From NCBI RefSeq assembly GCF_963921235.1, contig NC_086097.1, forward strand, positions 104,844,001 through 104,908,000: 64,000 bases of DNA, read 5' to 3'. Shown here in pieces: positions 1 through 63,669 of the stretch. This stretch comes from Mobula hypostoma. Lineage: Eukaryota. The notes under the pieces were generated by a model. It ran no database searches. It worked only from the letters and a program-made list of their open reading frames with translations, and was not told where the DNA came from. Each line of letters starts with the position of its first letter. Positions within the stretch are counted from its first letter, which is position 1. The position numbers and the translations under genes are program-made.

Positions 1-3000
1 ATTGCCTGTAACATGTATCTCCCGTATATTGCCTGTAACACGTAACCCCTCCATTCAGTGCCTATAAAATGTACCCCCCCATGCAGTACCTGTAAAATGT
101 CCCCCCCATGCAGTACCTGTAAAATCTCCCCCCGTACAGAGTCTGTGAAATGTCCCCACACCTGTACAGTGCCTGTAAAATGTCTCTATACCTGTACAGT
201 GCCTGTAAAATGTCCCCCCGTACAGTGCTTGTAAAATTTTCCCAGTATAGTGCCTGTAAAATGTACTCCAGTACAGTGCCTATAAAATGTATTCCCCCAC
301 CCTCCCCATGGTGCCTGTAAAATGTCCCCATACACGTACAGTGCCTGAAAAAAGTCTCCCTGTACAGTGCCTCTTAGCTGTATCCCTCCGTACAGGGCCT
401 CTAAACTGTATCCCCACTGTACACCACCTGTAAAATTCACCCCCCAGTACAGTCCCTGTAAAATGTATTTCTCTCCCGTACAGTGCCTGTAAAATGTGTC
501 CCCCGTGCATTGCCTGTAACATGTATCTCCCCCTGTACAGTGCCTGAAGACATCCCCCCCATACAGTGCCTCTAAACTGTATCCCCACCTGAGAGTGCCT
601 GTAAAATGTTCCTGCCCGTACAGTGCCTGTAAAATGTATCCCCTGTACATTGCCTGTAACATGTAACCCCTCCATACAGTGCCTGTAAAATGTCCCCCCC
701 GTACACTGTGTCTAACACGTATTCCCCCCGTACAGTGTCTGTAAAATGACCCCCTGTACAGTGCCTGTAAAATGTCTTCTCCGTACAGTGCCTGTAAAAT
801 TTCTTCCCCGTACAGTGCCTGTAAAATGCATTGACCCTGTACAGTGCCTGTAAAATGCATTGACCCCGTATAGTGCTTGTAAAATGCATTCTCTTTGTAC
901 ACTGCCTGTAACATGTATACCCAGCTTACAGTGCCTGTAAAATGTCCCCCCGTGCAGTGCTTGTACAATGTGCTCCCATACAGTGCCTGTAACACGTATC
1001 CCCCGTACAGTGTCTGTGAAATGTCCCCACACCTGTACAGTGCCTGTAAAATGTCCCCACACCTGCACAGTGCCTGTAAAATGTCTCCCCGTACAGTACC
1101 TGTAAAATGTACCCCAGTACAATATCTACAAATGTATTCCCCCCCACACCTCCGTACACTGCCTGTAAAATGTCTCCCTGTACAGTGCCTCTAAACTGTA
1201 TCCCCACCTGGGAGTGCCTGTAAAATGTATCCGCCCGTACAGTGCCGGTAAAATGTATCCCCCCGTACATTGCCTGTAAAATATACCCCCCAGTATATTG
1301 CCTGTAAAATGTACCCCCCCCCCGTACAGTGCCTGTAAAATGCATTCCCCCCAGACAGTGCCTGTATAATGCATTCCCCTGTACGGTGCCTGTAAAATGC
1401 CTTGACCCCATACAGTGCTTGTAAAATGCATTCCCTTTGTACACTGCTTGTACCATGTATACCCTGCTTACAGTGCCTGTAAAATGTTCCCCTGTGCAGT
1501 ACTTGTAAAATGCATTCCCCTTGTACAGTGCCTGTAAAATGTATTCCTCCCCTGTACAGCGCCAGTAAAATGTGTTCCCCCCCCCACACACACTGCCTGT
1601 GACATGTATACCCTGCTTACAGTGCCTGTAAAATGTCCCCATACCTGTACAGTGCCTGTAAAACGTCTCCCTGTACAGTGTCTCCTAGCTGTATCCCCCT
1701 GTACAGGGCCTCTAAACTGTATCCCCCCTGTACACCCCCTGTAAAATTCCCCCCCCCGTACAGTCCCTGTAAAATATATTTCCCTCCCGTACAGTGCCTG
1801 TAAAATGTACCCCAGTACGGTACCTATAAAATGTATTGCCCCACCCCCCACATGGTGCATGTAAAATGTCCCCGTACCTGTACAGTGCCTCTTAGCTGTA
1901 TCCACCCGTACAGGGCCTCTAAACTGTATCCCCCCCCCCATACAGTTCCTGTAAAATGTATTTCCCTCCCGTACAGTGCCTGTAAAATGTGTCCCCCGTA
2001 CATTGCCTGTAACATGTATCTCCCCCGTACAGAGCCTGAAAACGTACCCCCCCATACAGTGCCTCTAAACTGTATCCCCACCTGAGAGTGCCTGTACAAT
2101 GTTCCTGCCTGTACAGTGCCTGTGAAATGTATCCCCCCCCTTACAGTACCTGTAAAATGTATCCCCCCTACAGTGCCTGTAAAATGTATTCCCCCATACA
2201 GTGCTTCTAAACTGTATCCCCACCTGAGAGTGCCTGTAAAATGTATCCGCCCGTACATTGCCTGTAAAATGTATCCCCCTGTACAGTACCTATAAAATGT
2301 ATCCCTCCTACAGTACCTGTAAAATGTATCCCCCCTACAGTTCCTGTAAAATGTATCCCCCCCTACAGTGCCTGTAAAATCTATCCCCCATACATTGCCT
2401 GTAAAATGACCCCCCCCGTACAGTGCCTGTAAAATGACCCTACGTACAGCGCCTGTAAAATGACCCCCTGTACAGTGCCTGTAAAATGACCCCCTGTACA
2501 GTGCCTGTAAAATGCATTCCCCCGAGACAGTGCCTGTATAATGCATTCCCCTGTACAGTGCCTGTAAAATGCCTTGACCCCATACAGTGCTTGAAAATGC
2601 ATTCCCTTTGTACACTGCCTGTACTATGTATACCCTGCTTACAGTGCCTGTAAAATGTTCCCCTGTGCAGTGCTTGTAAAATGCATTCCCCTTGAACAGC
2701 GCCTGTAAAATGTATTCCTCCCCTGTACAGCGCCAGTAAAATGTTACTCCCCCCCCCCCCACACTGCCTGTGCCATGTATACCCTGCTTACAGTGCCTGT
2801 AAAATGTTCCCTGGTACGGTACCAATAAAATGTATTCCCCCACCCCCCATACGGTGCCTGTAAAATGTCCCCATACCTGTACAGTGCCTGTAAAATGTCT
2901 CCCTGTACAGTGCCTCCTAGCTGTATCCCCCTGTACAGGGCCTCTAAACTGTATCCCCCCTGTACACCCCCTGTAAAATTCCCCCCCCGTACAATCCCTG

Positions 3001-3451
3001 TAAGATGTATTTCCCTCCCATACAGTGCCTGTAAAATGTATCTCCCCCTGTACAGTGCCTGAAAACGTCCCCCCCATACAGTGCCTCTAAACTGTATCCC
3101 CACCTGAGAGTGCCTGTAAAATGTCCCCCTCCCCCGTGCAGTACCTTTAAAATGCCCTCCCCATATGGTGCCTGTAAAATGTATGTCCCCCTGTACGGTG
3201 TCTGTAAAATGTCCCCATACCTGTACAGTGCCTGTAAAATGTCTCCACACTTGCACAGTGCCTGTAAAACCTCCCCTGTACAGTGCCTGTAAAATGTATT
3301 CCCTACCCCCCCCCATGTCCCGTGTGGTGCCTGTAAAATGTTTTGCCCCATACACCTCTTCATTGTCCCCCTCCCCGTACAGAACCTGTAAAATGTCCCC
3401 CTCCCCGTACAGTGCCTGTAAAATGTATCCCCCCGTACAGTGCCTGTAAAA
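1..3451. repeat. Satellite/minisatellite array, ~28-30 bp monomer TACAGTGCCTGTAAAATGT(AT)CCCCC
   Basis: Over 100 visible tandem copies, running off the left window edge, with higher-order duplicated blocks. Confidence 0.97.
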
Positions 3452-4602
3452 CAGCGGTGCCCAACCACCGGGCCGCAAAGCGCACGCTACCGGGCCGCGA
3501 GGAAACGATATGATTTGGCGATAGGAGTCAGCTGCACCTTTTCTCATTCCCTGTCGCGCACTGTTGAGCCATTACGCACGCGAGGCCATTACCCGCGCGT
3601 CATCCATGTCAGCGCGGGAAGAAGATCAACTCCTCGAACTTGCAAATGACGGGATGAAAAGTATGTTTGACATAACATCTCTGCCGGCATTCTGGATCAA
3701 AGTCAAGGCAAAATATCCTGAGAACGTTGCTTCCATTTCCAACATATCTCTGCAATGAATGCAACGAAAACTAAATTGCGGAATAGACTGGACATAAGGA
3801 ACCCCCTTCGAGTATCGCTGGTCTCCCTTCACCCCTCGATGGCACGGTCTTGTTGTAGGAAAACAAACACAGGGCTCCCACTGATTCAGCAATATTGATG
3901 CATTGCAATGATTTTATATGTTCAAACGGGGAAAATATGTGCTGTGTGTTTAATATCCAAACGTTACTTAAAATGTTATGATGCTATTGACTTCTATAAC
4001 CATATAACAATTACAGCACGGAAACAGGCCATATTGGCCCTTCTAGTTCATGCCGAACGCTACTCTCACCTAGCCCCGCCGACCTGCACTCAGCCCATAA
4101 CCCTCCGTTCCTTTCCCGTCCATATACCTATTCAATTTTTCTTTTAATGATAATAGCGAACCTGCCTCTACCACTTCTACTAGAAGTTCGTTCAACACTT
4201 ACTTCAAGCTCCCCTGATAATTGACTTATCACTATATTCATGTGAGGAAAATATGCGCTGTGTTTAATATTAAATTCATTAGATAAACCCTTTTAGAAAC
4301 GAAATTGAGTGTATTAGCCACTTATCACCGACATTCTGGTCGTGATTAACCCCACCCCCCGAACAAAATCGCCAAAAAGGATTTGCAGAGAAAAGAAATC
4401 GGCGGGTTACGACGCGCATGCGCACTGGTGCCCGCACAAGGCTTCATGGTCATTGTAGTCTTTCTCTGGGTAAACAATGTATTTGACTGCTACTCTTGTC
4501 CGTTGGCAACGCTACCCCCCCCCCCCCCCGGGTTGGCCGGTCTGCAAGAATATTGTCAATATTAAACCGGTCCGCAGTGCAAAAAATGGTTGGGGACCCC
4601 TG
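3452..4602 (+). mobile_element. Non-autonomous hAT (Charlie/Buster-like) DNA transposon
   Basis: Terminal inverted repeats (TIRs) CAGCGGTGCCCAACC / GGTTGGGGACCCCTG. Flanking 8-bp repeat CTGTAAAA (3444-3451, 4603-4610). Transposase C-terminal remnant EEDQLLELANDG..SLPAFWIKVKAKYPE. Confidence 0.88.
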
Positions 4603-4957
4603 CTGTAAAATGTATCTCCCTCCCCCCGTACAGTGCCTGTAAAATGTATCCCCCTGTACAGTGCCTGTAAAATGTTCCCCCCGTACAGTGCCTGTAAAAT
4701 GTTCCCCCTGTACAGTGCCTGTAAAATGTATCCCCGTACAGTGCCTGTAAAATGTCCCCTCCCCGTACAATGCCCTTACAATGTATTCCCCCTCCAGCGT
4801 ACAGTGCCTGTAAAATGTTCTCCCCCCCCCCAGTTCGGTGGCTATAAAATGTGCCCCCACCCCTATTATAGTGCAGAGCCTACTAAATGGATTCTCCCCC
4901 CCCGCCTTAATGTGCCTCTGTCCCCCTGTGCGGTGCCAATAACATGTCCCCCCCACC
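4603..4957. repeat. Continuation of the same satellite, degenerating into the Tc1 left end
   Basis: The same monomer resumes after the hAT insertion. Confidence 0.93.
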
Positions 4958-8785: not shown

Positions 8786-9050
8786 ACACACAAAAAATGC
8801 TGGAGGAACACAGCAAGCTAGGCAGCATCTATGGAAAAGAGTAAACAGTTGATGTTTCAGGCCGAGCCCCCCCGCCCCCCCCCCCAGCAGGACTGGACAT
8901 CCTTTTTTCCCTCCAGTCCTGCCGAAGGGTCTCAGCCCAAAATGTCAACTGTTTACTCTTTTCCATAGATGTTGCCTGGCCTACTGAGTTCGTCCAGTAT
9001 TTTGTGTGTGTTGCTTAGATTTTCAGCATCTGCAGGTTTTCTCTTGTTTG
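8786..9050. mobile_element. Palindromic Penelope-derived short element
   Basis: Long inverted arms. 12-bp TSD TTGACTGAYGTG (8774-8785, 9051-9062). Same sequence as the Penelope end at 17675-17770. Confidence 0.8.
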
Positions 9051-9562: not shown

Positions 9563-9877
9563 GTATTGATTTATGTAATCAATGCAAACACATGAAAAGT
9601 AGTTATGGGACAAAACATTTACCTAACTTTCCCCTGACTGGAAGAGAGGTTTTTGAAAATGCATGGCTGTAATTATATAGGGTGTGCCATAAAATGGAAA
9701 CTATAAAGAGGAGAGGGACATAGAAAGAGTGGCTAGGCATTGTCCCCCTGGCTACTGTTGACAATTTTTCTGTGTGCTTCTGTGTTCAGTACAGAATAGG
9801 TTGGCTCGCTTCTTTGTGGATCTGGAAGTTGAGCTGAATCTTGGATGTATTCAAATGGCTTTTCCAATCTTTGGCAG

Positions 9878-9989
9878 ATTTGAAATTGAAAAGAAGTTGA
9901 AAGCAGCAAAGAAAAAGGAAAAGAAAGAGAAAAAGAAGAAAATGGAGGAAGAGCGTGAGAAGAAGATGCAGCAGATTCAAGAGTTGCCG
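9878..9989 (+). CDS. RTF1: RTF1 internal coding exon (first in window; lysine-rich region)
   Basis: Acceptor ttggcag| and donor |gtatcc. Encodes (R)[37 protein letters not shown], matching vertebrate RTF1 [22 protein letters not shown] as recalled. Confidence 0.93.
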
Positions 9990-12563
9990 GTATCCTGTTT
10001 TACTGTTTTTCTTTTTTGAGAGTATACTTCTAGTTGTTTCAGTATCAGATCCCATACCTACCGTGATACTTACTGTATCATCTAGCCACTGTTCAGATTC
10101 ATATTTAATGTTTTAAGTGCACCTCAAGAATGGGTTACTTTCTTCCCTGTCTCCCCAGAACATGGAACTGGAAAAAAGATTACTAATGATTTAGCGATGT
10201 GCTCAAATACAAATGTGGAAAATTAGGAGCAGGAGTAGACCTTTTGACACCTGGTCTCTACTCTGTCATGGCTAATTATCTAGATTCAGTATCTTGTTCC
10301 AGTTTCCTCCCCACATCTCTTGATCCCTCTAGCCCTTAGAAAATATAATCTATTCTTTCTTCGATATACTTAATGATTTGACTTTAAGTTCTGTGCAGAA
10401 GTCCATAGGTTCACTGCTCTCTAGGAGAAGAAATTTCTCATCTTAGTCTTTTGTTTACCTCTTTAGACTTTGATCTCTAGTCCTGAATTCTCTGGCAGTG
10501 GAAATGTATCCCTGACATTTCAATCATTTGCATAGAGGTTAGTTCTGCCCCTTTTGCAATAAGGCTGTTTGTGTATCAATTCAATAATTCCATCCTCGCT
10601 ATGCCTTTCACACTAAGAAATTCTGAAAATTCCTTACTACTATAACCTGTGCCAACATCTCTTGAAGATTTGTCTTTATCTGCTATTTTATTGAATTATT
10701 GTGAGACCTCTGTAAACACCATGTGGTTGCCCCTTTCAGTTCTACACAGTTACCATGAAACTTGAACTTCTCTCTATAATATCATGAGCTTCCATTGGGT
10801 GCTAGAGTTTTCCCCATGTCAAAAGATATGCAGACTGGTAGACTACTGTGAAATGCCCTTCGTTATGTGAGTGGTAGAATCTGAGAGGAGTTTTCGAGGG
10901 AAGTGAGTGCCCAAGGTTTAACCTCCCACTCAACTTTGCTGTCTGCTAACTTGGAGGTACTGCATTAGGTTTCCTCATCCAGATCATTAACATGAATTGT
11001 AAATTGCAGATTCCAGCACTGACTGTCACTGCCAGGTACTTAGGGAAAAATGACCCACTTAATCTGTTGGTCAACGAATTTTCTGTCTTAGCACAAATTA
11101 TCCTAATCTCATGGTTTTTATTAATTTTAGAGTTGAGTTATATACAATGTGGAAATGAGCCCTTCAGATTAACACATTGATATGTGCTACTTGTATAGAA
11201 ACAGAAAATCTACAGCACAATACAGGCCCTTTGGCCCACAGTACTGTGCCAAACATGTACTTGGTTCAGAAATTACCTAGGGTTACCCATAGCCCTCTAT
11301 TTTTCTAAGCTCCATGTACCTATCCAGGAGCCTCTTAAAAGACCCTATTGTATCCACCTCCACCAACATTCCACACATACACCGCTCTGCATAAAAACCC
11401 TGACATCTCTTCTGTACCTACTTCCAAGCACCTTAAAACTGTGCCCTCTCTTATTAGCCATTTCAACCTTAGGGGAAAAAACATCTGACTATCCACATGA
11501 TCAATGCCTCTCATCATATTGTACACCTCTAACAGGTCACCTCTCATCCTCCGCCACTCCAGGAAGAAAAGGCTGAGTTCACTCAACCTATTCTCATAAG
11601 GCATGCTCCCCAATCCTATATTCTGTCATCATATTTGCATACCAAAATGAACCACCTCACGCTTACCTGGTTTGAAATCCATCTGCCACTTCTCAGCCCA
11701 GTTTTGCATTCTATCAGTGTAACCTTCTGACAGCCTTCCACACTATCCACAACACCCCCAACCTTTGTGTCATCAATAAATTTACTAACCCATCCCTCCA
11801 CTTCCTCATCCAGGTCATTTATAAAAATCACGAAGAGAAGGGATCCCAGAACAGATCCCTGAGGCACACCACTGGTCACCAGCCTCCATGCAGAATATGA
11901 CCCGTCTACAACCACATTTTGCTTTCTGTGGGCAAGCCAGTTCTGGATCCACAAAGCAAGGTCTCCTTGGATCCCATGCCTCCTTACTTTCTCATTAAGC
12001 CTGGCATGGGGTACCTTATCAAATGCCTTGCTGAAATCCATACACACTACATCTACTGCTCCACCTTCATCAATGTGTTTAGTCACATCCTCAAAAAATT
12101 CAATCACGACCTGCCTGTGACAAAGCCATGCTGACTATTCCTAATCATATTATACCTCTCCAAATGTTCATAATTCCTGCCTTTCAGGATCTTCTCCATC
12201 AACTTACCAACCACTGAAGTAAGACTCACTGGTCTATAATTTCCTGGGCTATCTCTACTCCCTTTCTTGAATAAGGGAACAACATCTGCAACCCTCCAAT
12301 CCTCTGGAGCTCTTCCCATCCCCACTGATAATGCAAAGATCATTGTCAGAGGCTCAGCAATCTCCTCCCTCATCTCCCACAGTAGTCTGGGGTACATCTG
12401 GTTCCAGTATTGGAGACTTGTTTTACATAATGCTTTCCAAAAGCTCCAGCACATCCTCTTTCTGAATGTCTATATGCTCAAGCTTTTCAATTTGCTGTAA
12501 GTCATCCCTACAATTGCCAAGATCCTTTTCCGTAGTGAAAACTGAAGCAAAGTATTCATTAAA

Positions 12564-12794
12564 CAACAGGAATTCTGCAGATGCTGGAAATTCAAGCAAC
12601 ACACATCAAAGTTGCTGGTGAACTTAGCAGGCCAGGCAGCATCTGTAGGAAGAGGTGCAGTCGACGTTTCAGGCCGAGACCCTTCGTCTGAGTTAGTCCT
12701 GACGAAGGGTCTCGGCCTGAAACGTCGACTGCACCTCTTCCTACAGATGCTGCCTGGCCTGCTGCGTTCACCAGCAACTTTGATGTGTGTTGCT
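12564..12794. mobile_element. Near-perfect palindromic Penelope-derived insert within CR1
   Basis: Inverted arms of ~95 bp. Perfect 16-bp TSD CAAAGTATTCATTAAA (12548-12563, 12795-12810). Confidence 0.88.
12695..12730 (+). ncRNA. Putative minimal type I hammerhead ribozyme motif
   Basis: AGTC-CTGACGA-AGGgtctcggCCT-GAAAC-GTC-GACT: stem I AGTC/GACT, core boxes CUGANGA and GAAA, GUC triplet, loop-less stem III. Confidence 0.7.
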
Positions 12795-14324
12795 CAAAGT
12801 ATTCATTAAATACCTCTGCCATCTCCCCCAGTTCCATACACAGTTTTCTACTGTCACACTTGATTGGTCCTATTCTGTCACATCTTATCCTCTTGCTCTT
12901 CACGTACTTGTAGAATGCCCTAGGGTTTTCTTTAATCCTGCTCGCCAAGACCTTCTCATGGTCCCTTCTGGCTCTCCTCATTTTGTTCTTATGCTCCTTC
13001 CTGCTAGCCTTATAATCTTCTAGATCTCTATCTTTAGCTAGTTTTTGAACCTTTCATAAGCTTTTCTTTTTTTCTTGACTAGATTTTCAACAGTCTTTGT
13101 ATACCATGGTTCCTGTACCCTACCATCCTTTCCCTGTTTCATTAGAACGTACCTATGCAAAACGCCAAGCATGTATCCGCTGAACATTTGCCACATTTCT
13201 GCCGTACATTTTCCTGAGAACATCTGTTCCCAATTTATGCTTCCAAGTTCCTGTCTGATAGCTTCATATTTCCCCTTACTCCAATTAAACGCTTTCCAAA
13301 CTTGTTTGTTCCTATCCCTCTCAAGTGCTATGGTAAAGGAGATAGAATTGTGATCACTATCTCCAGAATGCTCTCCCATTGAGAGACTTGACATCTGACT
13401 AGGTTCATTTGGCAATACCAGATCAAGTACAGCCTCTCCTCTTGTAGGCTTATCTACATATTACGTTAGGTAACCATCCTGAACACACCTATCAAACTCC
13501 ACCCCATCTAAACCCCTTGCTCTTTGGAGATGCCAATTAGTATTTGGGAAATTAAAATCTCCCACCATGACAACCCTGTTATTATTACATCTTTCCAGAA
13601 TCTGTCTCCCTATCTGCTCCTCGATTTCCCTGTTACTATTGGGTGGTCTATATATTAAAAAAATCACGCAGTCGAGTTATTGACCCTTTCCTGTTTCTAA
13701 CTTCCACCTACAGAGACTCAGTAGACAATCCTTCCATGACTTCCTCCTTGTCTGCAGCCATGGCACTATCTCTGATCAGCAGAGCCATGCCTTCACTTCT
13801 TTTGCCTCCCTCCCTGTCCGTTCTGAAACATCTAAAGCATGGCACACCTGCCCCTGAGCCATCCAAGTCTGTGTAATGGCCACTGCATCATAACTCCAAA
13901 TACTGATCCACGCTCTAAGCTCATCCGCTTTGTTCATGATGCTTCTTGCATTAAAATACACACATCTCAAACCATCACTCGGAGCACATCCCTTCTCTGT
14001 CACCTGCCTATCCTCCCTCTCATAATTTCTCCAAGCTTTCTCTATTTGTGAGCCAACCACCCCTTCCTCTGTCTTCAGTTCGGTTCCCACCCCCTAGCAA
14101 TTCTAGTTTAAGCTCTCCCAATAGCCTTAGCAAATCTCCCTACCAGGATATTGGTTCCCCTCAGATTCAAGTACAACCCATCCTTTTTGTACAGGTCACG
14201 CCTGCCCCAAAAGAGGTCCCAATGATGCAGAAATCTGAATCCCTGCCCCCTGCTTCAATCTCCCGGTCATGCATTTATCTTCCACTTGGCTCTATTCTGA
14301 TTCTCACTGTCGCGTGGCACAGGC

Positions 14325-15669
14325 CTCAATGACTACAGATCGGTGGCATTGACCTCCCACATCATGAAGACCCTGGAGAGACTTGTTTTGGAGCTGCTCC
14401 AGCCTATGGTCAGGCCACACTTAGATCCCCTCCAGTTCGTCTACCAGTCCCGACTAGGAGTTGAGGATGCCATCGTCTTCCTGCTGAACCGTGTCTACGC
14501 CCACCTGGACAAGCCAGCGAGCACTGTGAGGGTCATGTTTTTTGATTTCTCCAGTGCGTTCAACACCATCCGCCCTGCTCTGCTGGGGGAGAAGCTGACA
14601 GCGATGCAGGTGGATGCTTCCCTGGTATCATGGATTCTTGATTACCTGACTGGCAGACCACAGTACGTGTGCTTGCAACACTGTGTGTCCCACAGAGTGA
14701 TCAGCAGCACTGGGGCTCCACAGGGGACTGTCTTGTCTCCCTTTCTCTTCACCATTTACACCTCGGACTTCAACTACTGCACAGAGTCTTGTCATCTTCA
14801 GAAGTTTTCGGATGACTCTGCTATAGTTGGATGCATCAGCAAGGAAGATGAGGCTGAGTACAGGACTACAGTAGGAAACTTTGTCACATGGTGTGAGCAG
14901 AATTATCTGCAGCTTAATGTGAAAAAGACTAAGGAGCTGGTGGTAGACCCGAGGAGAGCCAAGGTACCGGTGACCCCTCTTTCCATCCAGGGGGTCAGTG
15001 TGGACATGGTGGAGGATTACAAATACCTGGGGATACAGATTGACAATAAACTGGACTGGTCAAAGAACACTGAGGCTGTCTACAAGAAGGGTCAGAGCCG
15101 TCTCTATTTCCTGAGGAGACTGAGGTCCTTTAACATCTTCCGGACGATGCTGAGGATGTTCTATGAGTCTGTGGTGGCCAGTGCTATCATGTTTGCTGTT
15201 GTGTGCTGGGGCAGCAGGCTGAGAGTAACAGACACCAATAGAATCAACAAACCCATTCGTAAGGCCAGTGACGTTGTGGGGATGGAACTGGACTCTCTGA
15301 CGGTGATGTCTGAAAAGAGGATGCTGTCTAAGTTGCATGCCATCTTGGACAATGTCTCCCATCCACTACATAATGTACTGGGTGGGCACAGGAGTACATT
15401 CAGCCAGAGACTCATTCCACCGAGATGCAGCACTGAGCGTCATAGGAAGTCATTCCTGCCTGTGCCCATCAAACTTTACAACTCCTCCCTTGGAGGGTCA
15501 GACACCCTGAGCCAATAGGCTGGTCCTGGACTTATTTCATAATTTCCTGGCATAATGTACATACTACTATTTAACTATTTATGGTTCTATTACTATTTAT
15601 TATTTATGGATTAACTGTAACAAAAACCAATTTCCCCCGGGATTAATAAAGTATGACTGTGACTATGAT
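14325..15669 (+). mobile_element. 5'-truncated Rex1/Babar-type LINE with uninterrupted RT ORF (14343-15518), inserted in CR1
   Basis: YRSVALTSHIMK, DFSSAFNTI, GAPQGTVLSP, KFSDD motifs. 3' AATAAA followed by a short (TATGAC)-like tail. Confidence 0.9.
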
Positions 15670-16569
15670 TAATCCCGAGATTACGACCTTTGAGGTCCTG
15701 CTTCTCAGCTTCCTTCCTAGCTCCCTGTAGTCTGTTTTCAGGACCTCCTCCCTTTTCCTACCTATGTCATTGGTACCAATATGTACCACGACCTCTAGCT
15801 GTTCACCTTCCCACTTCAGGGTATCGTAGTCATGATCAGAAGCATCCCGGATCCTGGCACCTGGGAGGCAAACTACCATCTGTGTTTCTTTTCTGCGTCC
15901 ACAAAATCGCCTGATTGACCCCCTAACTATAGAGTCCCCTTTTACTGCTGCCCTCTTCCCTTCTGAGCCACAGGGCCAGACTCTGTGCCAAAGGCGTGGG
16001 CACTGTTGCTTCCCCCATGTAGGCCCCCCCGTCAGCAGTACTCAAGCAGGAGTACTTATTGTTAAGGGGGACAGCCACAGGGGTACTCTCTAGTATCTAA
16101 CTCTTGCCCTTCCTTCTCCTGACTGTTACCCACTTATCTGTCCCCCGAGGCCCCGGTGTGACTACTTGCCTCTTGCTGCTCTTTATCACCTCCTCACTTG
16201 GTCCCTAAGGAGCTGCAGTTCGATGCACCTGGTGCAGATGTGGCCATCTGGAGGTCGGGAGTTTCCTGGACTTCCCACATCTGACACCCAGTACAGAACA
16301 CCAGCCTCAGGGACGTAAAGGACTTCATTGAAATTTTCTGAATGTCTGTCTACCTGTTCTCCCTCATCTATTCTGTCAAAAAATAGACAGATGATTTGTC
16401 CATGATTTCCCTTTTACGAATCCACTAGTGCTCTGTTTTATAAATTCCCCCACCACACGTCAGGCTAGTTGAGCTGTAATTCCCTGATTTGTCTTTTTAC
16501 TAAGTAGTAAGGATATCCCCCACTAGTTCATCCCTTCCTACCTACATCTGTGACACTTAGTGCTCTGGA

Positions 16570-17772
16570 TCTTTTCAAAAATGATTTCAAGTTCCCTGAC
16601 CCCATCATCTTAGTTTTACTATGGATGTTCAGTCCCTATATACCTCCATCCCCCACCAGGAAGGCCTCAAAGCTCTCTGTTTCTTTCTGGACACCAGACC
16701 CAACCAGTTCCCCTCCACCACCACTCTCCACCGTCTAGCGGAACTTGTCCTCAGTCTAAATAATTTCTCCTTTGGCATCTCCCACTTCTTTCAAACAAAA
16801 GGTGTAGTCATGGGCACTCACATGAGTCCCAGCTATGCCTGCCTTTTTGTTGCCTAAGTGGAACAGTCCATGTTCAAAGCCTACACTGGCATCTGTCCCC
16901 CACTTTTCCTATGCTACATCGAGGACTGCATTGATGATGTTTCCTGCACCCATGCCAACCTCATTGACTTCATTCACTTTGCCTCCAGCTTCCACCCTCC
17001 CCTCAAATTTACCTGGTCCATTTCCAACACCTCCCTTCCCTTTCTTGATCTCACTGTTTCTCTATTTCTGGAGACAGCTTATCTACTGATGTCTATTATA
17101 AACCCACAGACTTTCGCAGCTACCTGGGCTATACCTCTTCCCACTGTGTTACTTTAAAAACGCCATCCCCTTCTCTCAATTCCTTCGTCTTTACTGCATC
17201 TGCTCTCAGGAAGAGGCTTTTCATTCCAGAATGAAGGAGATGTCCTCCTCTTTCAAAGAATGGGGCTTATGTTTCTGATATGTTGATCCATGGCCTTCTC
17301 CACTACTGTGATGAGGCCACATTCGGGTTGGAAGAGCAACACCTTGTATTCTGTCGGGGTAGTCTGCAACCTGATGGCATGAACGTCAATTGCTCGAACT
17401 TCAGGTAATGTCTCCACCCTCTCCTTCGCCAGTCCCCATCCCCTTTTCCCTCTCTCACCATCTCTTGGTCTGCCCATCACCACCTCCCTTTTTCTTTTTT
17501 CCATGGCCTCCTATCCTCACCTATCAGGCTCCCTCTTCTCCAGCCCTGTATCTCTTTCACCAATCAACTTTCCAGCTATTTACTTCATCCTTCCCCCTCC
17601 CAGTATCACCTATTACCTTGTGTTTCTCTCTCCCCTACCCCCACCTTTTAAATTTACTCCTCATTTTTTTTCCTCCAGTTCTGATGAAGGATCTCGGCCT
17701 GAAACATTGACTGTACTTTTTCCCCATAGATGCTGCTTGGCTTGCTGAGTTCCTCCAGCGTTTTGTGTGTAC
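16570..17772 (+). mobile_element. Penelope-like retroelement fragment (RT remnant + 3' terminal region)
   Basis: MDVQSLYTSIPHQEGL, NNFSF...QTKGVVMGTHMSPSYACLF, YIED. Ends with a hammerhead-like CTGATGA..GAAAC at 17681. Confidence 0.85.
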
Positions 17773-18809
17773 TGCTAGTATATATTGAAAATCTATCTGT
17801 CTGAACCTTGGAAAATTTCCACCAACGCATCCACTATGTGTAGGACCATTTTTAAGTTGCAGAATGTCAGACCCTGAAGAATTATTGGACTTTAATCCCT
17901 CCAATTTCCCAAACAACCCTGTTAATACTGACTTCTTCTTCAGCTTCACCTCACTTGATCTTGTGTTTCACAACATTCCTGCCAGGTTGTCTTTGTCCTT
18001 TGAGTACACCAAAGCTCTGTGTTCAATTTGTTGTCTTTGTTCTTGATTGAATTCCTCCTTTTTGTAAAGGATATGTGCATTCTTCTTCACTAGTCATTGA
18101 CTCCACACTTGACTTTCGAACCTTTTACAGTCGGCTTTGTTATCTGCAAGTTTATTCTCTCCATTCCAATCATTCCCATTGAGTATCTTTTCCTGAATTT
18201 TTGAGTTTTTCTTCATTATTCAGCCCTTTATTTTACACTTCTCCTTGGATCTAATATTATACATAATTTTTTTTTGCTGATTCTTGGTTGAGCTAGCTGT
18301 TCTGTTTATGCAACAGATGTGAATGAACGATAGTTGTAATTTCTCCATAGCCCACCTAGCTAACTCTTGATTTCATTGTTTCGTTTATCTAGATTCAGAA
18401 TCCTATTCCTCTTTCCATCCTTTCCATTTTCATGTTATGATTGTTCCTTCCCAAAGGATCCCACGCAACAGGGTTGTTTATTATCCCTTTCTGGTTACAT
18501 CGTACCACTTTTCAGATATTTTGAATTTACTTAATCAAACATTTTTAAAACAAATAGAAAATGTAGAATTTATCAGATTCATGGATGTTCCTAAAGGAAC
18601 GAAGCTAGTCTGATGTATCAGTAAGTTGAGATTTGTAGCAGTATATTTAGAGATCTATACGCAAAAATTGGACTTTCAGACCAACTTGTCCATGCTCACC
18701 TCAGCTAGTCCCATTTTCTTACACTTGGCCTGCAGCCCTGTACCTGTCTAAATGTATTTTAAGCATTGCAATTACACTGCCTCTCAGGTCGTCTGGCAGC
18801 TTGTGTACG

Positions 18810-19652
18810 CACTGTGTGGCCACTTTATTTGCTTGTTAATGCAAATATGTAATTCTCTTTTTTTTTAAACATGGGTTGCCATGGTAGCATAGCAATTAGC
18901 ATGACGCTATTACAACTCAGGGTGTTGGTATTCAGAGTTCAATTCTAGCATCCTCTAATCAAGTTTATATGTTCCTTCCCATATGCACGTGGGTTTCTCC
19001 AGGTGCTCCAGTTTTCTCCTACAGTCTAAAGACGTACTGGTTAATGGGTTAATTGGTGATGGTTAATTATCCTGTGATTAGGTTAGAGTTAAATCGGTGG
19101 GTTACTGGGCAACATGGCTTGAAGGACTTGTTCCATGCCATATCTCTAAATAGACAAAGCCAATCATGCAACTCAACGCATAAAAGAATACAGACATGAT
19201 CAAGAGGTTTAATTGTTGTTCAAACCAAACATCAGAATGGAGAAGAAATGTGATCCAAGTGACTTTGACCAGTGAAATGATTATTTGTACTGTTTGGGGT
19301 GGTTTGAGTATCTCAAACTGCTGTTCTCTGGGGATTTTCACGCACAACGATTTTCTAGCATTTACAAAGAATGGGGCAAAAAAAAACAAAAAAAAAAAGT
19401 GGGTGGCAGTTCTGTGGGCGAAAATGCCTTCTTAATGAGAGCGGTTAGAAGAAAATGGCCAGATTGGTTTAAGCTGACAATAGGGCGGCAGTAACTCAAA
19501 TAACCATACATTCAGCCGTGGTGTGCAGAAAAGAACATCTCTGAATGTACGATGTATTCAACCTTGAAGTGGAGGGGCAGCAGAAGACCACGAATATACA
19601 CTCAGTCGCCACTTTTTTTTAAGGTACAGGTGATGCCTAATAAAATGGCCAA
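18810..19652. mobile_element. Degenerate non-autonomous Tc1-like element interrupted by a SINE
   Basis: Inverted termini TGGCCACTTTATT / TAATAAAATGGCCA and Tc1-like internal sequence. Confidence 0.5.
18872..19150 (+). mobile_element. tRNA-derived V-SINE-like element
   Basis: A-box-like GGTAGCATAGC and B-box-like GAGTTCAATTC, followed by the V-domain-like GTGGGTTTCTCCAGGTGCTCCAGTTTTCTCC. Confidence 0.7.
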
Positions 19653-20780
19653 TAAAATTTCCCACCAACCTGTGTGGTGGGAAATCATGCCTTTTCCTAC
19701 CCCTTTTAAATCTGTTTCCTCCAGTTTAGAGGCCATGACCATGGGAAAAAGATAGCTTTCATCTTAATCATGTCCCTCATGATGTTGTATTTGTCAAAGG
19801 TCACCCCTCAGCCTTCTATGCTTCCAGCCTTTCCAGTCTTGCCTTGTAACTCAACCCCTCCAGTCTTTGTGGTTTCCAGCTGTCACAAGCCATATATTAG
19901 CCGGATGTTGTCCTTGGCCATTACTTGCAGTCTTGGATTTTGGCCATAGGAACGGTACAAGTTAGCTTCATGTGAATACTTTTGTTGTTATAAAATATCA
20001 TCAAGCTGTTTAGTTGAACTAAGACACAAAGGATAATCAGTATTAACCTGAGCGCAGGTATAGATAGAACTACATTTTAAGTGCAACAGATGCTCACCGT
20101 ATCCTGTTAGCCCTGCAATGTCTAAATTAGGAGATCTATTTCCACTTGATAAACCAAGCTGATAGATTCATACCTTTTATCCAGCACTGTGGCCCTTCCA
20201 TTGTGATCCCTAAGTGACACCTGGCTACTGGCAGGTTGAATTCATTTAGTTGGAGTGGCAAGGTGGGAACAAGTGGACTGGAGTGTAAAACAAACATTGG
20301 TTCTGGAAACCTGTGTGTCGTTATCTCCTGTACCTTCCCAAATAATGAATTACTTTTAGAAGAAAGCACTAGTGAAGTAACAGAGTTGGGTTCATTCAGA
20401 TTTGGCAACTTAAAGCTTGCTTTTTAGTACATTATTATTGCTTGACCATTGCTATCAAGCCATGGGTTTATCTTTCAGTAGAGAATGAAGGAAGTCAGTG
20501 TTTCGTTGAAAATTGAGCTGCCAGCATATTGAAGCTGTAGTAGAATGTACTTATGCTGTGACAGTCTTGGAGTGATCTGCATTTAATGGACCACTTAATT
20601 AAAGCCCTACAGTTCTGCTAAAATGAGCGAGCTCCATCTTTGGTACCAAGGGAGTTCAACGTCAGGTAAAGATGGTGCATTTGTGGCTAGTCCTCGATTC
20701 ATTTAGACTTCCTGCTGAGGCTACCATTGTCATGGAAGTCAGCTTTCGGCTAATTTACTTTTTTCTATGTAGTATGTCTG

Positions 20781-22660: not shown

Positions 22661-22772
22661 GTGATGTCTCACAACAAGGAACGGAGATCAAGGAGGGATG
22701 AGAAACAGGACAAGAAGTCTCAGGCTATGGAGGAATTGAAAGCTGAAAGAGAGAAGAAGAAAAATAAAACGG
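22661..22772 (+). CDS. RTF1: RTF1 internal coding exon
   Basis: ctgcag| ... |gtaaca. Encodes [37 protein letters not shown]. Phase 0 start and phase 1 end fit the neighbouring exons. Confidence 0.95.
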
Positions 22773-22859: not shown

Positions 22860-23190
22860 TTTCTTCAATGGTCTACTGTCCTCTGCTATTAGATTCCTTC
22901 TCTGGCCCTTTACCACTTCTACCTATTACCTCCTAATTTCTTACTTTATCCTCACTCACATTCTTTCTCAGCTAGTCTCACCTATCAGCTGCCAGCTTGT
23001 ACTCTTTCCCCTCCCCCATTTTTTTTATTCTGGCTTCTGCCCCCTTCTTTTCTCGTCCTATTAAAGAGTCTCGCCTTTTAAGCATCAAGTGTTATTTCCT
23101 CCCCATTGATGCTGCCTGACTTGCTGAGTTCTGTCAACATTTTGTGTGTGGCTCAAGATTTTCAGCATCTGCAGAATCTATTTTCTTTAT
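22860..23190 (+). mobile_element. Degenerate Penelope 3' fragment
   Basis: Resembles 17490-17770 and ends in ...GATGCTGCCTGACTTGCTGAGTT...TTTCAGCATCTGCAG. Confidence 0.65.
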
Positions 23191-27259: not shown

Positions 27260-29857
27260 AAGACCATAAGACAAAGGAGCAGAAGTAGGCCATTCGGCCC
27301 ATCGAGTCTGCTCCGCCATTTTATCATGAGCTGATCCATTCTCCTATTTACTCCCACTCCCCCGCCTTCTCACCATAACCTTTGATGCCCTGGCTACTCA
27401 GATACCTATCAATCTCTGCCTTAAATACACCCAATGACTTGGCCTCCACTGCTGCCCGTGGGAACAAATTCCATAGATTCACCACCCTCTGACTAAAAAA
27501 ATTTCTTTGCATTTTTGTTCTGAATCCACTCTGTCCATGCCTTTTAACATTTGAAATGTTTCTATGAGGTCTCCCCTCATTCTTCTAAACTCCAAGGAAT
27601 ACAGTCCAAGAGTGGACAAACGTTCCTCATATGTTAACCCTCTCATTCCCGGAATCATTCTAGTGAATCTTCTCTGTACCCTCTCCAACGTCAGCACATC
27701 CTTTCTTAAATAAGGAGACCAAAACTGCCCACAGTACTCCAAGTGAGGTCTCACCAGTGCCTTATAGAGCCTCAACATCACATCCCTGCTCCTATACTCT
27801 ATTCCTCTAGAAATGAATGCCAACATTACATTCGCCTTCTTCATTACTGACTCAGCCTGGAGGTTAACTTTAAGGGTATCCTGTACGAGGACTCCCAAGT
27901 CCCGTTGCATCTCAGAACTTTGAATTCTTTCCACATTTAAATAATAGTCTGCCCGTTTATTTTCTCTGCCAAAGTGCATAACCATACACTTTCCAACATT
28001 GTACTTCATTTGCCACTTCTCTGCCCATTCTTCCAATCTATCCAAGTCTCTCTGCAGACTCTCCGTTTCCTCAGCACTACCAGCCCCTCCACCTATCTTC
28101 GTATCGTCAGCAAACTTAGCCACAAAGCCATTCCATAATCCAAATCGTCGATGTTCAGTGTAAAAACAAGCGGCCCCAACACTGATCCCTGTGGAACACC
28201 ACTGGTAATCGGCAGCCAACCAGAATAGGATCCCTTTATTCCCACTCTGTTTCCTGCCAATCAGCCAACGCTCTATCCACGTATGTAACTTTCCCGTAAT
28301 TCCAAGGGCTCTTATCTTGTTAAGTAGCTTCATGTGTGGCACCTTGTCAAAGGCCTTCTGAAAATCCAAATATACAACATCCACTGCATCTCTCTTGTCT
28401 AGCCTACTGGTAATTTCATCAAAAAATTGTAATAAGTTTGTCAGGCAGGAATTTCCTTTAAGGAATCCATGCTGAGTTCTGCCTATCTTGTCATATGCCT
28501 CCAGGTACTCTGTAACCTCATCCTTGACAATCGACTCCAACAACTTCCCAACCACCGACGTCAAGCTAACAGGTCTATAATTTCCTTTTTGCTTCCTTGC
28601 CCCCTTCTTAAATAGCGGAGTGACATTTGCAATCTTCCAGTCTTCTGGAACCATGCCAGAATCTATTGACTTTTGAAAGATCATCGCTAATGCCTCCGCA
28701 ATCTCCACAGCTACTTCCTTCAGAACACGAGGGTGCATTCCATCTGGTTCCGGAGATTTATCTACCTTTAGCCTATTCAGCTTCCTGAGTACTTTCTCTG
28801 TCGTAATTGTGACTGCGCTCACTTCTCTTCCCTGCCACCCTTGAGTGTCCGGTATACTGCTGATGTCTTCCTCAGTGAAGACTGATGCAAAATACTCGTT
28901 CAGTTTCTCTGCCATCTCCTTATCTCCCATTACAATTTCTCCAGCATCATTTTCTATCGGCCCTATATCTACTCTCATCTGTCTTTTACTCTTTATATAC
29001 TTGAAAAAGCTTTTAGTATCCTCTTGGATATTATTTGCTAGCTTCCTTTCATAGTTAATCTTTTTTCTCTTAATGACCTTCTTGGTTTCCTTTTGTAAAG
29101 TTTTAAAAACTTCCCAATCCTCTGTCTTCCCACTAATTTTTGCTTCCTTGTATGCCCTCTCCTTTGCTTTAACTTTGGCTTTGACTTCTCTTGTCAACCA
29201 CGGTTGCATCCTTTTTCCACTCGAAAATTTCTTCTTTTTTGGAATATACCAGTCTTGCACATTCCTCATTTCTTGCATAAACTCCAGCCACTGCTGCTCT
29301 GCCGTCTTTCCCGCCAGTGTCCCTTTCCAGTCAACTTTGGCCAGTTCCTCTCTCATGCCACTGTAATTTCCTTTACTCCACTGAAATACCGACACATCAG
29401 ATTTCAGCTTCTCTTTTTCTAATTTCACAGTGAACTCAATCATGTTATGATCACTGCCTCCTAAGGGTTCCTTCACCTCAATCTCTCTAATCACCTCTGG
29501 TTCATTACACAATACTCAATCCAGTACAGCCGATCCCCTAGTGGGCTCAACAACAAGTTGTTCTTAAAAGCCATCTCGCAGACATTCTACAAATTCTCTG
29601 TCTTGAGATCCAGTGCTGATCTGATTTTCCCAATCTACTTGCATGTTAAAATCCCCCACAATTATCATAACACTGCCCTTCTGACAAACCTTTTCTGTTT
29701 CCAGTTGTAATTTGAAGTCCACATCCCTGCAGCTGTTTGGAGGCCTATAAATAACTGCCATCAGGGTCCTTTTACCCCTGCTATTTCTTAGCTCAACCCA
29801 TAAAGATTCTGCACCTTCCGATCCTATATCACCTCTTTCTAATGATTTAATATCATT
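27260..29857 (-). mobile_element. CR1 LINE, 5'-truncated (ORF2 endonuclease end + RT)
   Basis: ORF 27479-29512: [29 protein letters not shown]. Internal frameshifted segment and a deletion near 27520. Confidence 0.93.
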
Positions 29858-38761: not shown

Positions 38762-38855
38762 AACACACACAAAATGCTTTTGGAATGCAGCAGGCCAGGC
38801 AGCATCTATTGGAAGAGGTACAGTCGACGTTTCGGGCCGAGACCCTTCGTCAGGA
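38762..38855 (-). mobile_element. Single-arm Penelope-derived insert with an intact hammerhead core
   Basis: Minus strand GTC-CTGACGA-A-GGGTctcgGCCC-GAAAC-GTC-GAC, flanked by repeated CATCACAT. Confidence 0.75.
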
Positions 38856-39411
38856 CATCACATCTTAACATCACATCCCTGCTGTTATATTCTATACCTC
38901 TAGAAATGAATGCCAACATTGCATTCGCCTTCTTCAGAACTGACTCAACCTGGAGGTTAACCTTTAGGGTATCTTGCACAAGGATTCCCAAATCCCTTTG
39001 CATCTCTGCATTTTGAATTCTTTCCCCATCTAAATAATAGTCTGCCCGATTATTTCTTCCTCCAAAGTGCATGATCATACACTTTCCAACATTATATTTC
39101 ATTTGCCATTTCTTTGCCCATTCCCCTAACTATCCAAGTCTCTCTGTTTCCTCTACACTACCCGCTCCTCCACCTATCTTTGTTTCATTGGCAAATTTAG
39201 CCACAAATCCATTAATACTGTAGTCCATATCACTGACATACATTGTAAAAAGCAGCAGTCCCAACACCGACCCCCGTGGAACTCCACTGGTAACTGGCAG
39301 CCAGCCAGAATATTGCCTTTATTCCCATTCTCTGTTTTCAACTGACCAACCAATGCTCCACTCACGCTAGTAACTTCCCTGTAATTCCATGAGCTCTTAT
39401 CTTGCTAAGCA

Positions 39412-52019: not shown

Positions 52020-54572
52020 ATAGAAAACATACAGCACAATACAGGCCCTTCAGCCCACAAAGCTGTGCTGAACATGTCCCTACCTTAGAACTACCTAGGC
52101 TTCTATTTTTCTAAGCTCTGCTGCCGGCAGCCCATTCCACGCACTCACCACTCTCTGCTTAAAAGTCTTACCCCTGACATCTCCTCTGTACCTACTTCCA
52201 AGCACCTTAAAACTATGCCCTCCACTTTTCGTGATTTTTATTAACGACCTGGATGTGGGGGTAGAAGGGTGGGTTGGCAAGTTTGCAGACAACACAAAGG
52301 TTGGTGGTGCTGTAGATAGTGTGGAGGATTGTCAAAGATTGCAGAGAGACAGTGATAGGATGCAGAAGTGGGCTGAGAAGTGGCAGATGGAGTTCATCCC
52401 GGAGAAGTATGAGGTGGTACACTTTGGAAGGACAAACTTCAAGGCAGAGTAAATGGCAGGATACTTGGTAGTGTGGAGGAGCAGAGGGATCTGGAAGTAC
52501 ATATCCACAGATCCCTGAAAGTTGCCTCACAGGTAGATAGGGTAGTTAAGAAAGCTTATGAGGTATTAGCTTTCATAGGTCGAGGGATAGAGTTTAAGAG
52601 TGGCAATGTAATGATGCAGCTCTATAAAACTCTGGTTATGCCATACTTGGAGTACTGTGTCCAGTTCTGGTCGCCTCACTATAGGAAGGATGTGGAAGCA
52701 ATGGAGAGGGTACAGAGGAGATGTACCAGAATGCTGCCTGGTTTAGAGAGTATTCATTATGATCAGAGATTAAGGGAGCTAGGGCTTTACTCTTTGGAGA
52801 GGAGGAGGATGAGAGGAGACATGATAGAGGTGTACAAGATAATAAGAGGAATAGATAGAGTGGATAGCCAGCGCCTCTTCCCCAGGGCACCACTGCTCAA
52901 TACAAGAGGACATGGCTTTAAGGTAAGGGGTGGGAAGTTCAAGGGTGATATTAGAGGAAGGTTTTTTACTCAGAGAATGGTTGGTGCGTGGAATGCACTG
53001 CCTGAGTCAGTGGTAGAGGCAGATACACTAGTGAAGTTTAAGAGACTACTAGACAGGTATATGGAGGAATTTAAGGTGGGGGGTTATATGGGAGGCAGGG
53101 TTTAAGGGTCGGCACAACATTGTGGGCCGAAGGGCCTGTAATGTGCTGTACTATTCTATGTTCTATGTTCATGCTAGCCATTTCAGCCCTGGGGAAAAGC
53201 CTCTGACTATACACACGATCAATGCCTCTCATTATCTTGTACATCTCTATCAAGTCACCTCTCATCCTCCGTCGCTCCAAGGAGAAAAGGCCAAGTTCAC
53301 TCAACCTATTCTCATAAGGCATGCTCCCCAATCCAGGCAACATCCTTGAAAATCTCCTCTGTACCCTTTCTATGGTTTCCATGGCCTTCCTATAGTGAGT
53401 TGACCAGAATTGAGCACAGTACTCCAAGTGGGGTCTGACCAGGGTCCTATATAGTTGCAACATTACCTCTCAGCTCTTAAACTCAATCCCTTGATTGACG
53501 GAGACCAATGCACCGATCCTTCTTAACCACAGAGTCAACCTGCGTAGCAGCTTTGAGTGTCCTGTGGACTCGGGCCCCAAGATCCCTTTGATCCTCCACA
53601 CTGCCAAGAGTTTTACCATTAATACTATATTCTGCCATCATGTTTGACCTACCAAAATGAACTACCCCGTGCTTATCTGGGTTGAACTCCATCTGCCACT
53701 TCTCAGCCCAGCTTTACATCCTATCAATGTCCCGTTGTAACCTCTGACAGCCTTCCTCACTATCCGCAACACCCCCAACCTTCGTGTCGTCAGCAAATTT
53801 ACTAACCCCTCCCTCCACTTCCTCATCCAGATCATTTATAAAAATCACAAAGAGTAGGGATCCCAGAACAGATCCCTGGTCACCGGCCTCCATGCAGAAT
53901 ATGACCTGTCTACAACCACTCTTTGCCTCCTGTGGGCAAGCCAATTCTGGATCCACAAAGAAATGTCCCCTTGGATCCCATGCCTCTTTACTTTTTCAAT
54001 AAGCCTTGCATGGGTTATCTTTTCAAATGCCTTGCTAAGATCCATATACACTACATCTACGGCTCTGCCTTCATCAATGTGTTAAGTCACATCCTCAAAA
54101 AATTCAATCAGGCTCGTAAGACACGACCTGCCTTTGACAAAGCCATGCTGACTATTCCTAATCATATTATGCCTATCCAAATGTTCATAAATCCTGCCTC
54201 TCAGGATCATCTCTATCAACTTTACCGACCACTGAAGTAAGACTCACTGGCCTATAATTTCCTGGGCTATCCCTATTCCCTTTCTTGAATAAGGGAACAA
54301 CATCCGCAACCCTCCCATCCTCTGGAACCTCTCCCGTCTTCATTGATGATGCAAAGATCATTGCCAGAGGCTCAGCAATCTCCTCTCTTGCTCCCCACAG
54401 TAGCCTGAGGTACATCCCGTTCGGTCCTGGTAACTTATCCAACTTGATGCTTTCCAAAGCTCCAGCACATCCTCTTTCATAATATCTATATTCTCAAGCT
54501 TTTCAGTCCACTGCAAGTCATCCCTACGATTGCCAAGATCCTTTTCCTTAGTGAATACTGAAGCAAAGTATT
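52020..54572 (-). mobile_element. CR1 LINE split by a + strand CR1 (pieces 52020-52218 and 53169-54572)
   Basis: YRPVSLTSVVGK, KFADD, LERRRMRGDL. The 3' region continues on the other side of the insert. Confidence 0.88.
52219..53168 (+). mobile_element. 5'-truncated CR1, relatively well preserved
   Basis: ORFs 52231-52452 and 52473-53105 (RT C-terminus). (TTCTATG)n tail. Confidence 0.9.
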
Positions 54573-57245: not shown

Positions 57246-57467
57246 AAACAAAAGAAAGTCTGCAGATGCTGGAAATCCAAGCAACACATACAAAATGCTG
57301 GAGGAACTCAGAGGCTAGACAGCATCTATGGAAAAGAGTATGGTCGATGTTTCGAGCTGAGACCCTTCAGGAGCAATCCTGCTGAAGGGTCTTGGCCTGA
57401 AACATCGACTGTACTCTTTTCCATAGATACTGCCTGGCCTGCTGAGTTCCTCCAGCATTTTGTGTTG
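57246..57467. mobile_element. Palindromic Penelope-derived short element
   Basis: Inverted arms. Degenerate flanking repeat GCTTTACTGTATTT / GCTTTGCTGTACTT. Confidence 0.8.
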
Positions 57468-57732
57468 CTTTGCTGTACTTTGTTGGAACACAATTGAATA
57501 TCCAGCTACTTTTACTCTATACTGATTTATTCTGTTATAAGTATGAGATTCTTTTGGAGCAATGTTCAGTGGGTAGAATCAGTCATTGTCTCAATTATCC
57601 AATAACCATGCTACTGAAAATGCATTATCACTGTCACTATTTGACAGCATTCTAGACAACTGGTTATGATTTGATGTGACTGCAGTGTTTATCATGATTG
57701 GGAATTGGTAATGGCATATAGTAATTGTCACC

Positions 57733-63085: not shown

Positions 63086-63669
63086 AATTAAATCTTTATG
63101 GGATCTGAGGTGAAAATGTGTTACACAGAATGATTGCTATCTGGAATGTGATGTTGGAATCAGATATGATCATTTTGTTTGAGGCATTTAGACACTTAAA
63201 TAGGCAAGATATACAGTATAAGGATCAGGTTCTAGTGCAGGCAAAAGGAATCATGTAGGTGGGCAAGAGATGAGCATGGACAATGTGAGCCAACTAGCCC
63301 ATTTCTGTATTGTATAATTCTGTCCCCATGAATGAGAAATTCCAGACTTTGAGGTGACCAAAGATTGCCTCTGTAGGCAAATCCAATGTTGACCATAAGC
63401 TTAAAGTCCTACTAATCTACCAGCTGGGAAAACCTAAGGTCTCTAAAAGGGTATTCGGAGGCAGTATTCTGGACATGTGGTGATCTCAAAAAAATCTGGA
63501 AGATGCCACTACCGTTCTTAGGTTTTATTATGAACACGAAGGATTCTGCAGATGCTGGAAATCTTGAGTGACATGCAAACATTGCTGGTGGAAGTCGAGC
63601 AACATCTATGGAGGGTAATTTGATGAAGGGGCAGTTTATTTCCCTTTGTAGATGCTGCCTGCCATGACT

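Follow-up and report, generated by a model that had tools for sequence, protein, structure and literature searches.

The window, i.e., the whole stretch of 64,000 nucleotides of Mobula hypostoma DNA that was analysed, contains exons of the RTF1 gene, all of them on the plus strand, with the Plus-3 domain at 35.4 kb. Between the exon with the translated stretch 9876–9986 (RTF1 residues 221–257, E 2.8e-4) and the exon with the translated stretch 22661–22771 (residues 261–296, E 5.7e-11) an insert of 231 bp is situated at 12564–12794. The insert therefore sits in an RTF1 intron, on the sense strand, and its assignment to the RTF1 pre-mRNA in the preliminary description of this DNA is borne out by the two flanking exons. 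Two repeat features were recorded elsewhere in the window: a long tandem array at 1–4800, which is degenerate and has units of about 27–30 bp, and an inverted LINE pair in an RTF1 intron (52224–53855), which is 77–78% complementary over 228 and 309 nt.

The insert is flanked by an exact direct repeat of 16 bp (16/16), the left copy lying at 12548–12563 and the right copy at 12795–12810; there is no third copy within the window. When the same repeat search was applied to random position pairs, none of 300 scored above 11, compared with 16 at the insert. The host of the insert is a decayed LINE ORF2 on the minus strand (12104–13460, ends approximate), which we take to be of the CR1 type and which was recognized by its open reading frames and their continuity across the site. 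With the insert and one copy of the repeat removed, the LINE frame resumes, running from '...MELGEMAEV' on one side to 'FNEYFASVF...' on the other as in the uninterrupted open reading frame at 27479–29515. Consequently, one of the two 16-bp copies is extra, and the repeat is a true target-site duplication, as had been proposed. A relative of the host LINE at 54318–54572 (82% identical) breaks off inside the word duplicated at 12548 and for that reason is no empty-site control.

The insert is a palindrome, in which 12595–12688 pairs with 12701–12794. The two arms are identical at 92/94 positions, in agreement with the nearly perfect inverted arms described earlier, and as RNA they are predicted to form a hairpin with a minimum free energy of −204.7 kcal/mol (z −26; 0/200 shuffles fold as well). 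The palindrome is asymmetric, with 31 nt present at the left outer end only and 10 nt of parent sequence (12691–12700) on the right only. The 31 nt (12564–12594, minus strand) constitute the 'tail' of a Penelope-like element (PLE). They do not pair with the right arm, and their sequence recurs behind 12794 in the contigs of two runs; three other palindromes have it as well, each on one arm. The left arm (12595–12688, minus strand) is, according to the arm alignment, a pLTR end that is 5'-truncated at hammerhead position G5, leaving the ribozyme incomplete (for the arms we use the hammerhead position numbering, with C3, G5, C17, etc., as we assume it to apply). The right arm (12691–12794, plus strand) is a tailless pLTR end, for which alignment and related-genome contigs place the 5' truncation 8 nt before C3. 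Between the arms lie two nucleotides (12689–12690) that are foreign to the parent of both arms, as judged from the parent upstream sequence in related-genome contigs, beside an inverted microhomology of 2–4 nt.

The related-genome contigs stem mainly from run X1, which is another genome (0.51 of words); it tests the family and not the locus, and its summed depth is no copy number. In X1, 391 contigs extend behind 12794 with a consensus that starts like the 31-nt tail (agreement 0.44), and 158 contigs extend before 12691 into a pyrimidine-rich stretch. As each arm holds parent sequence that is absent from the other, neither arm is a plain copy of the other. Common to both arms is a C at 12744, a minority allele that reaches at most 23% in X1. 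An assembly artefact can be ruled out, given that the host frame is restored by the duplication, the tail is confined to one side and two adjacent bases distinguish the arms. With a duplication of 16/16 and this single two-base difference between the arms, the insertion in the RTF1 intron is young.

The right arm contains a minimal type I hammerhead motif (12695–12730, plus strand). Stem I is formed by 12695–12698 and 12727–12730, and the core CUGACGA (12699–12705) is followed by an extra A (12706), stem II (12707–12709/12716–12718), GAAA (12719–12722) and a loop-less stem III (12722–12725); the cut is predicted after 12726. Sequence reading and a motif scan agree that this core is complete, as had been claimed. 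All features of the minimal PLE hammerheads listed in PMC4209133 were found by the scan in the plus arm, namely the core boxes, stems I and II, the extra nucleotide after A9 and the palindromic positions 15.2–16.2 (here and below, statements on published work refer to the parts of the cited papers that were available). In the arm alignment the minus arm has no C3, no U4 and no 5' stem I strand, and it does not show this set of features. It had been described as carrying the same motif with CUGA changed to CAGA; however, the homology ends at 12688 (G5) and the 'CAGA' spans the junction. Of the two hammerheads that were thought to lie in opposite orientations, the one in the plus arm is thus complete and the one in the minus arm is cut off by the junction.

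The covariance-model search that had been suggested as a check gave no support for the motif: in the region 10000–20000 of the window Rfam yielded no hammerhead family match up to E 10. The best Rfam match, mir-3926, scored 50.8 bits, below the gathering score of 82, and matched both strands equally, so that we discarded a microRNA reading; the match reflects the hairpin only. Scans of viral, metagenome and prokaryote genome contigs with three hammerhead patterns produced no locus. A 20-nt pattern produced 41 loci, which were dropped as chance, all 41 of them matching only over 19–37 nt around the seed. In the tailed arm (12564–12688, minus strand) one frame is open throughout, giving 41 codons, for which the probability by chance alone is ~0.14; in other PLEs the pLTR and tail encode the start of the open reading frame (PMC3846280).

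At 16489–17777 (plus strand) the window harbours a decayed PLE fragment comprising reverse transcriptase, the endonuclease end and a pLTR (tblastn E 1.7e-74 to P0005), an older relative of the arms. The match between the arm and the end of this Penelope fragment at 17.7 kb, which had been noticed before, was confirmed with 82% identity over 76 nt (E 5e-15). As a donor the fragment was rejected, as it belongs to an older subfamily and is identical to the arm at 75/92 positions. P0005 exceeds the Pfam cut-off for GIY-YIG, and its RVT_1 match falls short of the one for that domain. The fragment and P0005 together identify the arms as terminal repeats that belong to an element with reverse transcriptase and GIY-YIG endonuclease. 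P0005 has a C-x4-C-x2-C linker before GIY-YIG, which fits the CX2-5CxxC signature common to Neptune and Nematis; the linker region is absent from the fragment in the window. Judged from these sequence features, the parent is an endonuclease-bearing PLE, probably of the Neptune type. The closest named relatives of the nearby reverse transcriptase come from rays (76–77% identity). P0004, P0006 and P0007 are PLE reverse transcriptases that NCBI annotations of rays and skates list under the names of host genes, and these names probably belong to gene models that absorbed a PLE. A second, more decayed PLE reverse transcriptase fragment was seen at 58683–58842 (tblastn E 5.6e-5).

A profile search of the window found 10 arms with E <1e-8 and 3 weak matches, and nothing in the reversed window. 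We counted 11 arms at 7 loci, a number that includes the weak right arm at 63.6 kb and leaves out the weak matches at 62.3 and 22.5 kb. Four of the 7 loci are two-armed, and every one of them has the tail on a single arm and a centre of its own. Besides the 231-bp insert these are an older insertion at 8786–9049 with the tail on the right arm and an 11/12 duplication, an older one at 57246–57469 with the tail on the left arm and a duplication of about 13/15, both with different centres, and a decayed one at 63534–63665 with the tail on the left arm and a weakly matched right arm (E 0.81). Single arms were found at 38762–38856 (minus strand), tailless, with an intact hammerhead and a 10-bp duplication, in another LINE, and at 23002–23190 (plus strand), where a longer pLTR end has a tail and a decayed hammerhead. 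The hammerhead core is intact in 2/11 arms. In the two older palindromes that were compared, the identity between the arms (71/85 and 77/86) is no higher than the identity to other copies, which indicates that the arms of a palindrome are not being homogenised. Two details of individual arms may be added. Within the 8.8-kb palindrome, part of the hammerhead of the left arm is replaced by a G/C homopolymer run (8867–8885). The single young arm (38762–38876) has its start 3 nt upstream of C3, and ahead of it lie ~10 additional nt, in part a repetition of the target duplication.

The preliminary description had left a choice between a retrozyme-like family and extremely truncated inverted Penelope insertions. 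Our results support the latter and agree with the published pattern. PLEs insert with an inverted 5'-truncated copy beside the element and a tail of 30–40 bp at one end (PMC8557442), and copies arranged head to head, with a 31-bp tail in rotifer Pen2a and a target duplication, are described in PMC3846280. All of these traits were found at the insert: a PLE terminal repeat, a head-to-head 5'-truncated copy, a tail at one end only (31 nt) and a duplication. Very probably, then, the 231-bp insert is a dead, recent and minimal insertion of an endonuclease-bearing PLE that arose in one event.

Given this identity, we considered two alternatives for how the two arms came about. First, both target strands could have primed, which we favour as the most likely mechanism, if with some reserve. 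For a purified PLE protein, cleavage and extension of both strands of the target are described, with two internal start sites that bound the tail (PMC11167929). At the RTF1 locus the PLE protein would have nicked both strands of the AT-rich target 16 nt apart, a spacing that is visible in the duplication, the enzyme being presumed. Each 3' end would then have primed a cDNA on PLE RNA, one from the start at the tail end and one from the start at the pLTR end; the outer ends of both arms are observed here, and for the two start sites we rely on PMC11167929. Both cDNAs would have ended after about 100–125 nt, near the 5' edge of the hammerhead, where the arms do end. The cDNA ends would presumably have been joined via a few complementary bases with 2 extra nt and then repaired, the hammerhead being a passenger. 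Two primings explain the outward-facing 3' ends, the one tail, the one duplication and the variable centres. They also agree with the reach of the arms: the tailless arm extends further 5' at 12.6 and 57 kb and the tailed arm does so at 8.8 kb, as expected if the arms are independent, in the three cases that can be judged (63.6 kb is undecidable).

Second, a single cDNA could have folded back on a short inverted match and copied itself, an endonuclease or a template switch leaving the tail on one arm. Self-priming was proposed and favoured in PMC3846280, and resolution of the tail by the endonuclease is described in PMC8557442. The centre of the insert fits the inverted match TCAG..CTGA of the parent except for the 2 extra nt, and a centre variant in X1 that lacks 5 nt falls on a 5-nt match to the parent upstream sequence. 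In addition, the arms are nearly identical and both have the minority allele C at 12744. Two copies of a single template would account for this allele; two RNAs from one donor would do so equally. In its plain form, however, folding back cannot give a tail on one arm together with extra 5' sequence on the other, and it does not predict the reversed pattern at 8.8 kb. Moreover, inverted matches are not enriched at the arm ends, their mean length being 3.1 nt versus 3.4 nt further upstream in a weak test on two decayed long copies, and inverted microhomology as the cause of the clustered arm ends is accordingly not supported. We regard self-priming as possible rather than probable. Taken as a whole, a PLE insertion, most likely made by two primings, is, with good confidence, the best explanation of the insert.

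The position of the arm ends was analysed further. Seven of the 11 arms end within −21 to +4 of C3, i.e., within 25 nt of the 5' edge of the hammerhead; for two of them, the left arms at 8.8 and 12.6 kb, we fixed the boundary by eye, against the automatic alignment. Under a constant stopping risk, and uncorrected for the interval having been chosen afterwards, the chance of this clustering is at most ~0.001 (0.0008). Among the X1 joints listed that run back within the arm, 2/7 leave from 12726, the predicted cut site. The chance for these joints is 0.003, or 0.08 without an ambiguous one that perhaps reflects CpG decay, and their strand is not given. A tentative and rather doubtful reading is that the ~100-nt arms are run-off products, in which reverse transcription begins at internal tail sites in the upstream pLTR and proceeds to the 5' end of the RNA, and template jumps lead onto RNAs ending at C17. 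The RNA 5' end would then be located at a pyrimidine tract with CAG as its last bases, 0–20 nt upstream of the hammerhead. Such a tract overlaps the 5' strand of stem I in the longer copies (17650–17678 and 8897–8916) and is also present in the consensus of the loose ends in X1. If this reading were true, the jumps onto the RNAs that end at C17 would be a record of in vivo cleavage by the hammerhead; the available parts of PMC11167929 report no RNA ends at the hammerhead cut site. The tract resembles a splice acceptor, and both of these copies, at 8.9 and 17.7 kb, have sense orientation relative to RTF1. In Drosophila Penelope the end of an intron adjoins hammerhead stem I likewise (PMC4209133).

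If, instead, the palindrome were a discrete non-autonomous family, retrozyme-like or SINE-like, that is copied as a unit by PLE proteins, its copies should share ends and centre. In favour of such a family, a single duplication surrounds the whole unit, and pLTRs are able to mobilise other sequence in trans (PMC3846280). However, the four two-armed loci of the window have four different centres. The related-genome comparison points in the same direction. It covers four of 24 listed runs, of which X21 and X22 contributed no reads, and spans 12672–12971 and thus one arm and the centre, a range in which a skip of the entire insert or a truncation upstream of 12691 is out of view. In X1, 49,250 contigs were aligned to this range. 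Their summed depth is 1.5–3.3 × 10^7 along the arm (about 2 × 10^7) versus 560 in the bin 12672–12681 beyond the centre, about 3 × 10^-5 of the arm depth; this bin lies at the edge of the stretch, and at the opposite end the edge effect amounts to a roughly fourfold drop in depth, much smaller than the gap. The 8 joints in X1 listed first come from one contig each, one of them being an opposite-strand joint at 12710/12747, and among the further joints (12 of those listed) no two are alike. Depths of 164 and 248 are reached by two variants close to the centre, which lack 5 or 6 nt, compared with 26–118 for other single contigs, so that some centres do recur, a point in favour of the family. Among the contig pieces listed none spans the whole stretch. 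The insert also does not have tandem same-sense hammerheads, the defining trait of animal retrozymes, and its only complete hammerhead is predicted to be buried in the hairpin. With variable junctions and next to no depth through the centre in X1, a discrete retrozyme-like family is very improbable.

As to the activity of the hammerhead, it had been supposed that the hairpin competes with the ribozyme fold. The hairpin is real, but the folding computation goes further than competition: 12701–12731 is predicted to be paired with a probability >0.99, and forcing the ribozyme stems costs 57.5 kcal/mol relative to the hairpin. For these two reasons the hammerhead is expected to be silent in the RTF1 pre-mRNA, where, according to the computation, the left arm would be transcribed first and would then zip up the right arm without cleavage. 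Minimal hammerheads were inactive as monomers (PMC4209133), and cleavage by the PAc hammerhead is protein-assisted (PMC11167929). We also found no sign of the excess conservation of the hammerhead core across copies that had been envisaged. In a rough comparison, CpG decay in X1 amounts to 7–12% of the depth in the ribozyme and to 8–10% at a CpG outside the motif, where other subfamilies may dilute the value; in run X15 it leans the other way, with 1.8–3.5% in the ribozyme, about half of the 4.7–5.2% outside.

Use of the element by the host, as an active ribozyme or as a regulatory or edited hairpin affecting RTF1 expression, is highly improbable: the intronic sense orientation, the very stable hairpin and the higher A>G shares in X15, which is guessed to be RNA, than in X1 (17.8 versus 1.2% at 12733 and 12.5 versus 2.6% at 12743) would speak for it, but X15 and X1 are different organisms with shares that are family-wide and equally explained by alleles, the insertion is young and never spanned by the contig pieces listed, the predicted pairing covers the hammerhead core, the published minimal motifs were inactive as monomers or, in PAc, protein-assisted as stated above, and the other plus-strand copies within the window all lack an intact core as a dimer partner.

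Compared with known systems, the insert is closest to the inverted-pLTR insertions of the Pen2a_Av type (PMC3846280, PMC8557442), with which it shares head-to-head arms, a shorter inverted copy, a 31-nt tail on one arm and one duplication around the whole. It differs from them in that its arms are only ~100 nt long with no open reading frame between them and that its duplication is 16 bp, versus 8–10 bp in the rotifer cases described there. Compared with the minimal hammerheads of metazoan PLEs (PMC4209133), stem II has 3 bp here versus 7–8 bp in the Schistosoma motifs, position 11.1 is a U in a G-U pair (a C in the 38.8 kb copy), and the second motif is incomplete; pairs of hammerheads on opposite strands, 100–700 bp apart, were noted in the same paper in 2014. 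With PAc, an Anolis Poseidon element (PMC11167929), the insert has in common two 3' boundaries framing the tail, an AT-rich target (the duplication has ATT) and a hammerhead just upstream, whereas P0005 and with it the relatives here carry the C-x4-C-x2-C linker, a mark of Neptune and Nematis and not of Poseidon. Like the animal non-LTR retrozymes (PMC7229834; bioRxiv 10.64898/2026.07.22.740005) the insert is short, non-coding and PLE-related, with a type I hammerhead and a long duplication. Retrozymes, in contrast, consist of units in head-to-tail tandem, each unit having its own hammerhead, and are further characterized by monomeric circular RNAs; at the insert we found an inverted pair with one complete, buried minimal motif. 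In the searchable papers we found none on two-armed elements of this short kind from sharks or rays; the family may be listed in Repbase, Dfam or subscription papers, which lay outside this search.

The 231-bp insert is an ordinary minimal PLE insertion, a tidy case of the published pattern. As a single element it matters little, and its value lies in the family as a whole. With six other loci in the same 64 kb, a genome-wide table of the junctions could tell two-strand priming from self-priming, which PMC3846280 and PMC11167929, in the parts available, leave open. Such a table could also show whether the hammerhead cut or the 5' end of the transcript sets the stops of the cDNA.
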